Made by a program: the position numbers and the translations under genes. The notes beneath the pieces were generated by a model. The model was not told where the DNA came from and ran no database searches. It saw only the letters and a program-made list of their open reading frames with translations. Positions 3,856 through 49,634 of a stretch of 64,000 nt of DNA are shown piece after piece. Position 1 is the stretch's first letter; the number at the start of each line of letters is the position of its first letter. Origin of the DNA: a virus. Location: the IMG/VR virus record IMGVR_UViG_3300045993_000417, positions 1 through 64,000 of that record; one strand, written 5' to 3'.

Positions 3856-5010
3856 ATGACAAACACGATTAACACTGAAGAACTTATATCAGGCGGTGAG
3901 GCCTTGATTCATATGCTTACCGACGTTGATGTTGGTAAACAGATTAAAGGCATAAAAGATGCTCTACCTGGTACCCGTTCTGTATCTAAAAAAGACACCC
4001 TTATTAAGAAAGTGAAGTACCTGGATGGGCTGAGTCGCATGGACATTAAACCTCAAGACGCTTACATCTTAAGAAACATGCCAGTCATTCCACCCATCTC
4101 CAGACCTGTCATTCCTATGGGCGGCAATCGTATCGAATATGCCGACGTAAATACGCTTTATAGAGACCATATGCTGGTCAACAACTCTCTTAAAGACGTT
4201 AAGGATATGCTTCCTAACGATCAGCTAGTAAACGAGCGTAAGGCACTCTATGAGGGCGCTAAGGCTGTTATGGGATTAGGACCAGCTATCACTGGGTCTA
4301 GTCGAGGTAAACAGCTTAAAGGCTTTCTACATCAGATTAGTGGAGATACCGGCCCTAAGGGTGGATTCTTCCATAGTAAGATTCTAAGTAAGAAACAGGA
4401 CTTTTCAGGCCGAGCTACTATCTACGCTGAGCCTAATCTAGGGTTTAACGAGGCTGCAGTTCCAGAGGATATGCTTTGGACGATGTATGAGTTCCATATC
4501 TTGAGAAGCTTGGTTAAACAAGGCTTCGACTACGTTAGTGCTAAGAAGGCTGTGGGGAGTCGTAGTCCAGCTGCGATTAACGCTTTTAATAAGGTCATTA
4601 AACAGATTCCAGTCATTCTCAACAGAGCTCCGACTTTGATGAGGACAAACATCACTGCGCATTATCCAGTGCCAATCAAAGGAAAGACACTTGGTCTTAA
4701 CCCGTTACACCTCCCAATGTATGCTGGTGACTATGATGGTGATGCCCTCACAGTTCATGTACCTATGACTCCAGGTGCGGTGGAAGAGGCTAAGTCTAAG
4801 CTACTTCCGGAGTCACATATACACGATTACCGTAAGGGGATTGGTAACTCTATGGTAGCCCCCGGTCATGAGGCTATCATCGGATCAGTGTACATGACCG
4901 AGCCGGATACTACACAAAAGACGGTCACGTTTAAGACTGAGGCTGAAGCTATGTCAGCATTTAAACGCGGTGAAATTAAAGAGAATACTCCGATCTCCAT
5001 TAAGGGGTAG
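3856..5010 (+). CDS. rpoC: DNA-directed RNA polymerase beta' subunit, middle (catalytic) fragment
   Basis: Motifs MPVIPPISRP, DVNTLYR, KKQDFSGRATI, VILNRAPTL and catalytic YAGDYDGD (cf. NADFDGD). Confidence 0.95.
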   Translation: MTNTINTEELISGGEALIHMLTDVDVGKQIKGIKDALPGTRSVSKKDTLIKKVKYLDGLSRMDIKPQDAYILRNMPVIPPISRPVIPMGGNRIEYADVNTLYRDHMLVNNSLKDVKDMLPNDQLVNERKALYEGAKAVMGLGPAITGSSRGKQLKGFLHQISGDTGPKGGFFHSKILSKKQDFSGRATIYAEPNLGFNEAAVPEDMLWTMYEFHILRSLVKQGFDYVSAKKAVGSRSPAAINAFNKVIKQIPVILNRAPTLMRTNITAHYPVPIKGKTLGLNPLHLPMYAGDYDGDALTVHVPMTPGAVEEAKSKLLPESHIHDYRKGIGNSMVAPGHEAIIGSVYMTEPDTTQKTVTFKTEAEAMSAFKRGEIKENTPISIKG

Positions 5011-45706: not shown

Positions 45707-47044
45707 CTACCAGTCAATAGCTGGCACTGGTTCTACTACATTGTTTTGAAGAGTATGCATCGGTGCTGGTTGTACTTCATCTACTCTTAGTAACGCTGGT
45801 GCTATAGCAGGGCTAAGGTCATTAACCTCAGCCACTAGAACAACACCCTCATTGTTTTGATAATCCCTACTGACAACTTGTAACGGTGGAGCATCTTCGA
45901 CGATCTTTTTAGATCGCTTAGACGGGCTTTTGACCCCTACCACTGCAGTCTCTACGACTTCAGCGGCCACCACTTTGATTTTGTCAGTAATAGGAAGTGC
46001 ATCAGCCAATTCCTTAGCCTTAGCTTTCTCAGCAGCGGCCTTAGCCGCTTTCTCAGCCTTAATACGAATCACTTCTTCCTTCTGAACAATACCACTCGCC
46101 ATAGTCATAACCAGGTCGGTCTGACTATGATCAAAACCACGCGTGCTATTACCAGTTAACTCCTTAAAGTTATCATGTGCTTTAACCTTCTGGACGCTGG
46201 CTGTTACGGACAGGAAATGAGACATCGTATTGAACGTAGTGGAAGATCCTCCGGCCATGTCCACGAACACCTTATTGAAGTTCATAGGTTTACGGTAGTA
46301 ATAGTTCTGAACTACAGCAATTATGTTCGTAGCAACCAGAGCGTTGATAGCCAAGGTTTGATCAAGATCAGCACAACTACCTAGTCCTGGGTTATCCGCC
46401 AAGCTCAGGTAGTGATTAACATCCATTGGGATGAATGTAATGTCGTCTACGTGAGTGATCAGCTTAGGTAACTTTGCTACCAACGAGCTGTCCCACTCAT
46501 TAGGGTGTATGGCTACAGCTGGATTAAAGAAGTTGACTTGTCCAAAGTTGTCCTCATTACCTGAATCAATGATGAACACGTTTTCCTGCTGTTGGCCATG
46601 ACCTATGATTTCAAGGGCATTGGATAGGATCTTTCTCCTAGCTACTACAGAGTCAACACACATGATAATCATGACTGGTTCATTTACCAGGTTAACGTTC
46701 AATTCTCTTTTGAAGAACTGATAGATATCTGCGGGACCTTCAATGGCAGTAATCATTGGGGTAATGGACAGGCCGTACGCTTTGCTATAGCGTTCAGCCA
46801 ATACCACAGCCTTATTCTTACTGATGTCCTGACGAATGAAATTCTGGCGAGCCAGGTTCTTTTCTTCAATTATGTCGAAGTCACATAGAACGATGTTAGG
46901 AGTACCTAACCATCCACGTGGGGAATACTCACGAGTGATTGATCTCATGAACTGTGCCAACAGGGGAACTAGCCTTGAGCCAGTTCCACCGCAGCCTACT
47001 ACGATGATGTTATGCGGGATTGATGATGGGATGAAATTAAACAA
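45707..47044 (-). CDS. E1-like ThiF-family ubiquitin-like activating enzyme (PRTRC ThiF-like)
   Basis: VVGCGGTGS, DFDIIEEKNLARQNF, CVDS..AR, DSGN, and GSCA with the candidate catalytic Cys. Confidence 0.9.
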   Translation of the reverse strand: MFNFIPSSIPHNIIVVGCGGTGSRLVPLLAQFMRSITREYSPRGWLGTPNIVLCDFDIIEEKNLARQNFIRQDISKNKAVVLAERYSKAYGLSITPMITAIEGPADIYQFFKRELNVNLVNEPVMIIMCVDSVVARRKILSNALEIIGHGQQQENVFIIDSGNEDNFGQVNFFNPAVAIHPNEWDSSLVAKLPKLITHVDDITFIPMDVNHYLSLADNPGLGSCADLDQTLAINALVATNIIAVVQNYYYRKPMNFNKVFVDMAGGSSTTFNTMSHFLSVTASVQKVKAHDNFKELTGNSTRGFDHSQTDLVMTMASGIVQKEEVIRIKAEKAAKAAAEKAKAKELADALPITDKIKVVAAEVVETAVVGVKSPSKRSKKIVEDAPPLQVVSRDYQNNEGVVLVAEVNDLSPAIAPALLRVDEVQPAPMHTLQNNVVEPVPAIDW

Positions 47045-47092
47045 GTGCCTCTCCTTTTTAATTGATAGGAGGGGCGTTTAACCCCTCCACAT

Positions 47093-47959
47093 TCACATGC
47101 CGTTTTCTGCTACTTTCTGTTGATACTTGAGAGGTAGAGATCCAAACAAGTCCTTAATCATATCTAACTGCTTTTCGTCTTCCATCAACTGGAATAGATC
47201 ACTGATAGCTTCTGACAAGAGCTCATTCTTACCTACTAAAGGGGCCATACAATCGTTAAGCAACGTGAAGGCGTTAGCCACCTCGCTACCGTATTGTATA
47301 GCCAGGTATGAGTATTGGTCGCTATCTACGTTACCAATGTCACTACCATGGAACCTACCTACAGGATCCCCCTCTTCTACCTCTCCGTAGTTGTTAAAGC
47401 CGTCTACGTTGTCACCCTCTAATTGAGTCCTTGAGTGCCCGTTTGTTTGCTCGTTTATCTCGTTTCGAGAGCCAGCGGGACCCAGAGGGAGCTTCCCCTG
47501 AGCCCCCGATGGAAAACCCGCTGGGAGCCCTCCTTCGTAACCTTCGTACATCTCGTCTGCTGATGAGTTGAGAGCACGATTTGGGAGAGAGCGCAAACCA
47601 GGTCCTGCACGTTCACCAGAAGGTGTATGAGCATTTGGACGAGGACGACCATACTGATACTGCTCAAGATGATCCCACTTACGGCCACCTTGGTGTGTAC
47701 CGTGCTTACCACCGTATGAGCCATAGGTAGTTACATTGACGTTATTCAACCACTCTTCAGGTACGTCTACCACACGGTCTGCTGGTGTGTGGAAGATATC
47801 TTGGAGTTTCACTTCATACTTCTGTTTGTAGTAGTTGAAGCGGATCTTTACTTCTGGTTCTTTGTCTTTGAGTTTTCCTACAACACCTGAAAAACCGATG
47901 GCGTTAAGGTCATCTCGATCATCCGTGCCTGAAAAGAAACTCCCCATTGTGTTATGTGA
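47093..47959 (-). CDS. JAB/MPN+ metallo-isopeptidase, exon 2 (PRTRC protein A-like)
   Basis: SHNTMGSFFSGTDDRDD completes the H-S-H...S..D motif when joined to exon 1. Confidence 0.85.
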   Translation of the reverse strand, partial: SHNTMGSFFSGTDDRDDLNAIGFSGVVGKLKDKEPEVKIRFNYYKQKYEVKLQDIFHTPADRVVDVPEEWLNNVNVTTYGSYGGKHGTHQGGRKWDHLEQYQYGRPRPNAHTPSGERAGPGLRSLPNRALNSSADEMYEGYEGGLPAGFPSGAQGKLPLGPAGSRNEINEQTNGHSRTQLEGDNVDGFNNYGEVEEGDPVGRFHGSDIGNVDSDQYSYLAIQYGSEVANAFTLLNDCMAPLVGKNELLSEAISDLFQLMEDEKQLDMIKDLFGSLPLKYQQKVAENGM

Positions 47960-48301
47960 CATAACGTGTTATGGTTTTCTTTTTAATTACAAAACCCTTG
48001 AAATACTAACTTAAACGTAAATACGATAAGTTTTTACCGATAGTAAATCAAGATCAGACTATATCATCATCTTCAGAAGTATTGCCTGAAGAGTTGGGCG
48101 CTCGTGTTCCTATTATTGCATAGACTGCTCAAGGATTAGTCGTTACACTTTCTTGCTACTTCAATGTCTTTTCGCAAGCTTAGCACGGGATTATGTGTAT
48201 TGGACACGTTTTCCCCGTTAGCAGGATTTCTCCTACACCTCAGTTGTCTGAGTTCACCCAATTTATTCACTACAGATCGCTCCGTAGGTCCACTCACTTT
48301 A
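47960..48301 (-). mobile_element. Group I intron (342 nt, no homing ORF)
   Basis: The 5' exon ends in U; the intron begins UAA and ends in G. P1 UCCAU/GUGGA; P10 GUGA/UCAC; P3 UUGGGUG/CGCCCAA; Q AAUCCCGUGC; R GUAACGACUA; S GAUAUAGUC. Confidence 0.92.
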
Positions 48302-48763
48302 ATGGATATCCACGATAACACTAGTTCCATCGGGGATGTAAGCCCAGTCGTAACTAGCACTACCTTTAGAAACAGTCTGAGGGGGAACACCGATGTGGTA
48401 TCCACGCTCAGGATTATAAAGGACATGAATCATGGCCTCTACTTCTGATTTCTTTACTTCCATGACCTTCTTGAAGAAGGCGATGATTTGTTCCCAGATC
48501 TCGTACTGAATCTTACCCGCTGGTAAAAAGGCAATTTCTTGCTTGGTCATTTCAGCAGGAATAACCTCAGACGCAGGACGAACGTACCCAGGGATGGAAT
48601 CCACTTTCAACCTAATGAAACGGTTCTCACCTCGGAATACGTGTCGCTTGAAAAACTCATCCTTTACTATGGTATAAATTTCTTTATACCCCTGTGCAAC
48701 TGCGTCCGTCTCTTCTTGAAGACTCGCACAGATGCAGCTAATGCTGGGCATTAATATTTGCAT
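48302..48763 (-). CDS. JAB/MPN+ isopeptidase, exon 1 (spliced product 442 aa)
   Basis: SEVEAM (catalytic Glu), VPPQTVSKGSASY, IVDIH. AGGAG SD. Confidence 0.85.
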
Positions 48764-48827
48764 CCTCCACTCCTTAAGTTAAGCTACAGGTGTTACTATA
48801 CTCTTATACCAAAAACTGCCGTTTTGT

Positions 48828-49634
48828 TTAACGACGTAGGTGCTCGTATGGAAATGGTTTGTTATCTTTAGCCAAATCACGCAGGTGGTGATACCACTGT
48901 CTGGGCGAGCCAAACTTAACGATGTTCACCTTACTAGAGATACCTAGGTCATTACTGAACGGAGATTCCCATAGGAAGTTATAGTAGTAGTCAAGACCAC
49001 GTAGGTTGTTATCCACAAACCTAGCAGGCATCTTGTTACCACCATAACACATGTTACATGAGTCATATGAGTTGGTGAACGGCATAAGGGAAATACCCTT
49101 AGTGTGATCAACTCTAATGATTTGAACATCCGTTGGTAGTTTATTAACAGGAGAGTCCGTGACGGTGTAGTATGCGTTCGTGTTAACCCAGTCATTCTTC
49201 TCACGTTTGAGTTTGTGACTGATGATGATGTTAGGCACTACGATGTCGAACTTCTCCGTCTTACCTTCACCCATATACTGGAAAGGCTTAATACCTTCTC
49301 TGTAGTAGCAAGATATATCCAACTCAGTAGGTCCTACCGCTATGAAGAACGCACTGGTAGGAAGTGTCAATGTCAGTTTACTCTCTTTTGAAAGAGTGTT
49401 AGTGGCTTTGAGTACTGAGTTGATGAAGTCCTCATAGGACACGGTCTTGGTGATTCCACCAACCCCCTTAACCACTACGGAGTCGTCAAGTAGTACCACT
49501 TCTTGTCCAGACACCTCTACCATTGCTAGCAAGGATCTCTCTAGATCAGAGAGTGAAGTTTCTTTGACCATTTTAGGAACAGCCTCTACCACCTCTACTT
49601 CTGGGCGTGAGCCCTCAATAAATATGTCGTTCAT
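48828..49634 (-). CDS. Prokaryotic E2-like conjugating enzyme (PRTRC protein B-like)
   Basis: PNII...LMPFTNSYDSCNMCYGGN..P...FWESPFSND resembles the PF.N....G.(I/M)C.G E2-family motif; operon context agrees. Confidence 0.75.
   Translation of the reverse strand: MNDIFIEGSRPEVEVVEAVPKMVKETSLSDLERSLLAMVEVSGQEVVLLDDSVVVKGVGGITKTVSYEDFINSVLKATNTLSKESKLTLTLPTSAFFIAVGPTELDISCYYREGIKPFQYMGEGKTEKFDIVVPNIIISHKLKREKNDWVNTNAYYTVTDSPVNKLPTDVQIIRVDHTKGISLMPFTNSYDSCNMCYGGNKMPARFVDNNLRGLDYYYNFLWESPFSNDLGISSKVNIVKFGSPRQWYHHLRDLAKDNKPFPYEHLRR

Follow-up and report, generated by a model that had tools for sequence, protein, structure and literature searches.

Evidence for a group I intron in the zinc-motif codons of a phage JAB gene, with endonuclease-bearing relatives inserted 6 nt downstream

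We report that 342 nt on the reverse strand of a viral DNA stretch of 64,000 nt (the window) most probably constitute a genuine, splicing-competent group I intron that interrupts a JAB gene within the codons of its zinc motif; judged from sequence comparison, we give the intron and the junction described below a probability of about 0.85. The window is part of an IMG/VR virus contig of 84.8 kb (~67% complete by estimate). Homologous introns are present in the same gene of related phages, and the 6-nt shift of the insertion site among them, the antisense orientation of the endonuclease gene in the relatives, and two extra hairpins between P3 and P4 are more interesting than the location of the intron in an active site.

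An interrupted JAB gene

The gene and its neighbours are arranged as follows (all on the reverse strand):
48828-49634, reverse strand: Prok-E2_D-like protein, neighbour of the JAB gene
48302..48763, reverse strand: exon 1 of the JAB (PRTRC protein A-like) gene, an ORF of 154 codons ending ..VIVDIH
47960..48301, reverse strand: probable group I intron, 342 nt, beginning with an in-frame UAA and ending AUG with the omega-G at 47960 (based on an RF00028 match, the protein-alignment junction, and homologous introns in the related contigs L002, L003 and L010)
47093..47959, reverse strand: exon 2 of the JAB gene, with 288 codons and a stop codon, beginning SHNTMGSFFSGTDD (ORF and alignment)
45707-47044, reverse strand: ThiF/E1 protein, neighbour of the JAB gene (PRTRC_ThiF, E 5e-23)

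The JAB gene is part of a PRTRC-like Ubl/E2/JAB/E1 cassette. Exon 1 ends with GTG GAT ATC CAT and is followed by an in-frame TAA at 48301-48299, while exon 2 runs from 47959 with TCA CAT AAC ACA ATG GGG (SHNTMG..), directly preceded by an ATG at 47962-47960. The gap between the exons (48301-47960) is 342 nt and the two parts add up to 442 aa (154 + 288) once joined. A homologue search with the exon-1 ORF yielded 39 unsplit relatives of 389-517 aa, all with the Prok-JAB domain PF14464 and several carrying the source name 'PRTRC system protein A'; over 100% of its length exon 1 is 59-63% identical to unsplit PF14464 proteins of 418-517 aa. In the alignment the 39 unsplit homologues read DIHSHNTMGAFFSGTD straight through the junction point and have an uninterrupted ..VDIHSHNTMGAFFSGTDNRDD.., and since the two window ORFs meet precisely at DIH|SHN the joined product would be 442 aa with an intact JAMM motif (HxH-x7-S-xx-D). 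Correspondingly, in-silico removal of the intron gives DIH|SHNTMGSFFSGTDD, which matches the homologues and places E..HxH-x7-S-xx-D in one polypeptide. Moreover, positions 142-187 of the NCBIfam model PRTRC_A (TIGR03735) match exon 2 residues 1-46, and in the domain search PF14464 was reached by neither exon taken alone.

Only one cut has U as the final exon base and G as the final intron base. The sole alternative that leaves the same joined sequence, a cut shifted by +1, was rejected as the intron would then end in T.

An earlier note on this DNA had proposed that the JAB zinc motif is divided as H|SH by a group I intron without an ORF, whose removal restores a frame of 442 aa. Its coordinates, strand and frames are confirmed, the junction being placed by the protein alignment, and the intronless alleles that it suggested looking for are represented by the 39 unsplit homologues. 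It also foresaw the annotation as two genes: the JAB gene is split by gene callers into two hypothetical proteins, the 154-aa fragment is stored as a separate protein in the database, and at least 9 protein clusters are truncated likewise. As long as the intron goes unnoticed, phage Ubl-conjugation cassettes will therefore appear to be without an intact isopeptidase.

Comparing the window with L002 (both intron-bearing), we obtained dN/dS values of 0.016 in exon 1 and 0.06-0.09 in exon 2, synonymous sites being near saturation. Strong purifying selection acts on both exons, which are maintained as coding sequence; given that the interruption separates two zinc ligands of the motif, this implies that the intron leaves the RNA. 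Positions 47000-49000 gave no blastn match in the phage collection, and tblastn of exon 1 against phages gave one weak partial match only (Salmonella phage Arash).

Structure of the intron

The Rfam model RF00028 (Intron_gpI) matches 48311-48036 on the reverse strand over its full span (positions 1-253) with 29.1 bits, corresponding to E 2.6e-5 when 901 nt were searched against all Rfam families and to E 5.8e-7 when the 84.8-kb genome was searched with RF00028 alone. The group I covariance-model check that the earlier note had called for therefore gave a match, though one below the gathering score: at gathering scores no Rfam family reached threshold anywhere in the window (29.1 bits against 50 for RF00028). 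We ascribe the low score of the window copy to an insertion of ~33 nt, folding as two hairpins, between P3 and P4; in the covariance-model alignment as well as in that by MAFFT, P4 is wrongly placed on the first of the two. The splice-site U.G pair of the RF00028 consensus falls on U48302.G48293, U48302 being where the protein alignment independently ends exon 1. The 3' splice site is 76 nt past the end of the RF00028 match, and it was placed there by the protein alignment together with the terminal G and a P10 of 4 bp. The following elements were located in the window:
48289..48306, reverse strand: P1, exon end UCCAU|U (48306-48301) with the internal guide AGUGGA (48294-48289), 6 of 6 paired, with wobble U48302.G48293
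48294..48297, reverse strand: P10 guide GUGA, directly 5' of the P1 guide, 4 bp with the exon-2 start UCAC (47959-47956)
48270..48287, reverse strand: P2 hairpin, 7 bp, GNRA loop (GCGA)
48255..48261, reverse strand: 5' strand of P3, UUGGGUG, pairing with CGCCCAA at 48094-48100
48221..48252, reverse strand: two extra hairpins between P3 and P4, CUCAG-ACAA-CUGAG and GUAGGA-GAAA-UCCUGC
48152..48218, reverse strand: P4-P5-P6 domain, with P4 ACGGGG/UCCCGU, P5 GUGU/ACAC and P6 CUUGC/GCAAG
48057..48141, reverse strand: P7 domain, P7 GACUA (48141-48137) with UAGUC (48061-48057), enclosing P7.1, the 3' strand of P3, and P8
within 48057..48141, reverse strand: P7.1 UCCU/AGGA and P8 UCUUCAG/CUGAAGA, complementary strands
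47960..48056, reverse strand: 3' tail (P9 region), 97 nt, up to the omega-G 47960

Every helix of the window core from P3 to P8, including the P3/P7 pseudoknot and the P4-P6 domain, is complementary, and both the R element GUAACGACUA and the S element GAUAUAGUC, which make up the guanosine-binding helix P7, are present; the P1 with a U.G pair, P10, P3, R/S elements and terminal G described in the earlier note have all been found. The fold z-score is -3.0. All helices also pair in the three variants of the JAB-gene intron (window, L002 and L010), with compensatory changes in P1, P2, P3, P3.1, P3.2, P4, P7.1 and P8; the P2 loops are GUAA in L002 and GUGA in L010, and their stem sequences differ from that of the window. 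A P7.1 between P7 and the 3' strand of P3 is an IA-type trait, and we take the window intron to belong to an IA-like phage family.

Homologous introns and the endonuclease gene

Homologous introns interrupt the same gene in two groups of contigs, one comprising L002, L003, L008 and L009 (exon 1 protein identity to the window 92-93%) and the other L010 (72%). They are 1141 nt long in the L002 group and 958 nt in L010, compared with 342 nt in the window. The Rfam search of L010 gave no match at E <= 0.1; the alignment nonetheless shows clear homology of its intron. Open reading frames of the relatives, and what corresponds to them in the window, are:
L002:3652-4524, reverse strand: LAGLIDADG ORF, 290 aa, antisense to the intron and the JAB gene; at the same place in L003
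L010:624-1325, reverse strand: LAGLIDADG ORF, 233 aa, antisense to the intron and the JAB gene
48010..48124, forward strand (window): endonuclease remnant, 37 C-terminal codons LKRKYDK...GARVPIIA plus stop, preceded by a stop and without a start codon

The L002-type and L010 ORFs are intact, have two LAGLIDADG motifs each and are 44% identical to one another; PF00961 and PF14528 score above their cut-offs in the endonuclease ORFs of the relatives (PF00961 with 29.7 bits in L002 and L003). Compared with the window, the L002 endonuclease matches only at residues 249-290 (62% identity, E 6.7e-7). An intact LAGLIDADG ORF with two motifs is absent from the window intron, and no other copy is present in the 84.8 kb. 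In the alignments the 3' tail of the window lacks ~800 nt found in L002, and this is the region that holds the antisense gene in the relatives. With a full endonuclease gene in the relatives and its last 37 codons in the window, the window intron is seen to be a derivative that has lost the gene; on this comparison its ORF-less state is secondary.

Homing endonucleases characteristically target codons of functionally critical residues (PMC3984707), and together with the LAGLIDADG gene in the introns of the relatives this makes an insertion at the HxH codons an expected one. The view of the earlier note that the active site is an unusual location is thus not upheld.

Three further observations concern the endonuclease gene and the sequence around it. 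First, the final ~27 codons of the L002 endonuclease ORF extend over the P7.1-P9 stretch of the ribozyme core. Second, dS between the window and L002 is 0.67 in the first 75 codons after SH (window 47735-47959) compared to ~2.7 in exon 1 (48302-48763), and the low value just downstream of the intron could represent a co-conversion tract from homing. Third, a short distance upstream of the 3' splice site, the intron tails of the window, L002 and L010 share (C)AUAAC(AC) (window 47966-47976, reverse strand; L002 ~4596-4603; L010 ~1322-1331). This motif is similar to CAU|AACACA, the sequence of the ligated exons at the HSH|N site, and its versions in the window (CCAU) and L002 (GCUAU) might also pair with the P1 guide; it may be left over from the invasion by the endonuclease gene or represent an alternative pairing.

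Insertion sites and break points in the HxH codons

In the relatives the insertion point is 6 nt downstream of that in the window, i.e. HSH|N instead of DIH|SH. The junctions are ..ATT CAC AGC CAT|UAA..UUAUUG|AAT ACA ATG in L002 and ..CAT TCG CAT|UAA..CAAAG|AAC ACA ATG in L010, and the guides match the respective exons:
window: exon end UCCAU, P1 guide GUGGA, P10 GUGA : UCAC
L002: exon end GCCAU, P1 guide GUGGC, P10 GUAU : AUAC (exon +2..+5)
L010: exon end UCGCAU, P1 guide GUGCGA, no clear P10 pairing

Nucleotide identities show the intron to be mosaic:
window and L002: exons 82-86%, P1-P2 65%, core 92%
window and L010: exons 71-73%, P1-P2 80%, core 75.5%

Simple boundary sliding was considered as the source of the 6-nt shift and rejected, since the window intron begins UAAAGUG, as does that of L010, and not with former exon bases. 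The shift has the look of a precise re-insertion by way of a retargeted guide. Tentatively, one lineage might have moved 6 nt within the HxH codons by retargeting of the guide with a rematched P10, i.e. by an RNA-guided relocation of the reverse-splicing type; we consider this possible but unlikely.

Among the exon-1 homologues, short proteins from several lineages stop at three points in the motif:
..D[IC]H|: window, P0043, P0049, P0050
..HSH|: P0040 cluster, P0042, P0047, P0057, P0058
..HN[TS]MG|: P0041, P0044, P0045, P0046, P0048, with unrelated tails; a break point seen as protein truncations

Proteins ending ..HNTMG| have two kinds of unrelated read-through tails, R.. and (N)KNVP.., and at the protein level the tail of P0057 (RWCDGVAIL) can be back-read as a putative L010-type guide region, UGGUGCGAC. 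The search for related loci with P0043 found nothing, and that with P0048 found unsplit relatives only. Should the relocation and the third break point after ..HNTMG be true, the JAB active-site codons would be a multi-site hotspot for mobile introns. In any event, three states exist in closely related genes, namely an intron with an endonuclease gene (HSH|N), an endonuclease-less intron (DIH|SH) and no intron, and these allele states with their site-matched guides make it possible to test, in a compact natural setting, how the insertion site of a group I intron changes.

Predicted splicing and alternative readings

In the proposed mechanism the JAB gene would be transcribed into a single pre-mRNA, on which ribosomes would be halted by the in-frame UAA that is the first intron codon, letting the ribozyme fold. 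The guide GUGGA would then form P1 with the exon end UCCAU, including the wobble U48302.G48293, and an external guanosine would attack after U48302. The P10 guide GUGA would align the first exon-2 bases, and ligation after G47960 would give ..GAUAUCCAU|UCACAUAAC.. and hence the 442-aa JAB with its E..HxH-x7-S-xx-D motif intact. An aquifer metatranscriptome, the only RNA run, contains one 212-nt contig of the L002-type intron core, with no exon sequence and no joint.

A quite unlikely alternative is that the intron is a genuine group I intron which needs a protein helper, either a maturase-type LAGLIDADG protein from a co-infecting relative or a host factor; the window allele would then splice poorly or only in certain conditions. 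LAGLIDADG proteins often double as maturases (PMC3073962), and the deletion of the endonuclease gene, the two extra hairpins in J3/4 and the low Rfam score would all fit such a dependence. However, the endonuclease gene is antisense and mostly outside the ribozyme core, the core helices of the window are all intact, and its exons are under strong purifying selection.

It is very unlikely that splicing is a regulatory timer of JAB activity, with the unspliced mRNA yielding the 154-aa N-terminal fragment only. While the in-frame UAA would give a defined 154-aa product from unspliced RNA, we found no feature pointing to regulation and thus no support for the splicing-timed deconjugation put forward in the earlier note. 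Moreover, selfish mobility explains the homing endonuclease gene of the relatives, and 39 of the 48 related protein clusters are unsplit, implying that the intron is dispensable for the system.

Less probable still is a dead intron remnant in a pseudogene, where the two ORFs would be decaying pieces of an inactivated JAB gene. An Rfam score below the gathering threshold and the absence of direct RNA support could be read in this way, but both exons have low dN/dS values (0.016-0.09, synonymous sites being near saturation) and are open over their full length with the catalytic residues intact, P1 and P10 fit the local exons, and the same DCH| break is found in three other contigs. Finally, a two-piece JAB, in which exon 2 is translated separately from the in-frame ATG directly before it (47962-47960) and assembles with the exon-1 product, is hardly credible: no Shine-Dalgarno-like sequence precedes this ATG (AAAACCAUAACACGUUAUG), L010 has AAG at the same place, which makes the window ATG incidental, and two zinc ligands would be separated.

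Relation to known introns

Group IA2-type phage introns are found in T4 td, nrdB and sunY, in Twort orf142, and in the DNA polymerase genes of SPO1 and Bastille. The window intron resembles these in residing in a phage ORF at conserved catalytic-residue codons, in starting with an in-frame stop, in having a P7.1-type element between P7 and the 3' strand of P3, and in that relatives have a peripheral endonuclease gene and ORF-less derivatives occur. It differs in that its host gene encodes a JAB/JAMM isopeptidase and not a DNA-metabolism or structural protein, and the JAB introns differ in having two hairpins between P3 and P4 and, in the relatives, an antisense endonuclease gene. We know of no phage with a homing endonuclease gene in antisense orientation and, to our knowledge, both an antisense LAGLIDADG gene and a covarying two-hairpin insertion in J3/4 are unusual among phage group I introns.

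Several of these features are established, e.g. group I introns in phage protein genes, their peripheral endonuclease genes and the loss of the latter (PMC3984707; PMC3073962), and in-frame stops at the intron start are known from group I introns of bacteria and phages (PMC3984707). Within the literature collection searched there was no paper that combines group I intron, phage and JAB, and the JAB of the Ubl/E2/JAB/E1 cassette appears to be a new host gene class for group I introns.

An antisense homing endonuclease gene, I-DirII, is present in an rDNA intron of Didymium iridis (PMC3073962). As there, the endonuclease ORF runs opposite to the intron and the host gene in L002, L003 and L010; the Didymium case, in contrast, concerns eukaryotic nuclear rDNA, a His-Cys box enzyme and a Pol II promoter, whereas the JAB introns are in a phage protein-coding gene, their enzyme is of the LAGLIDADG type, and the window keeps only a remnant of it. 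With respect to the two insertion sites, related rDNA group I introns at different sites provide circumstantial support for transposition by reverse splicing (PMC3984707; PMC1299323), for which direct evidence is lacking according to a review (PMC3984707). The JAB introns are similar to these rDNA introns in that homologous introns occupy two sites and have guides matching 4-6 nt of the local exon, and unlike them in that the sites are merely 6 nt apart, in a phage protein-coding gene whose exons are restored in frame at both. Such a 6-nt difference in site with matched guides likewise seems new or uncommon.

A wider family of phage introns

Scanning IMG/VR for the core from the R element to the 3' strand of P3 (TGTAACGACTA, a spacer of 20-50 nt, and CACGAGCGCCC) gave 52 loci. 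At seven of the 14 loci tested, an RF00028 match that exceeds the gathering score (51.3-72.9 bits) coincides with the core, and these loci are without the J3/4 insertion. In an alignment of 30 sequences, the window included, standard pairs make up 98.9% of the cells in P3, P6, P7 and P7.1, compared with 77% in shuffles and 29-41% when the partners were slid; both sides have changed in 10 of the 21 pairs of these helices. Specifically, the two outer P3 pairs, all five P6 pairs, P7.1 and P8 covary among the 30 members, and P7 (GACUA/UAGUC) is invariant in all of them.

The extra hairpins are specific to the JAB-gene introns (window 48221-48252, reverse strand; L002:3524-3556; L010 ~425-460), and in L010 they keep pairing by compensatory changes (CCUAG/CUAGG and GUAGAU/AUCUGC). 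The remaining 27 aligned members are without them and have GGGUGAAUU-CGGUG with a short J3/4 joiner of 2-4 nt (AAUU or similar). A search with the two-hairpin insertion pattern returned the contigs L002 and L003 alone in IMG/VR and no match in prokaryote genomes. Capsid (PF13252) and family-A DNA polymerase ORFs precede other family members, and this intron family is therefore widespread among phages.

Some contigs of the family show additional features. Two copies of the intron core, ~1.6 kb or 5.5 kb apart, are present on each of the phage contigs L035, L038, L048 and L050, and L063:5077-5707 has two adjacent RF00028 matches above the gathering score. Full-length tmRNA genes (100-105 bits) are present, together with tRNA genes, on two viral contigs of the intron family, at L046:3064-3452 on the reverse strand and at L065:10186-10574 on the forward strand.
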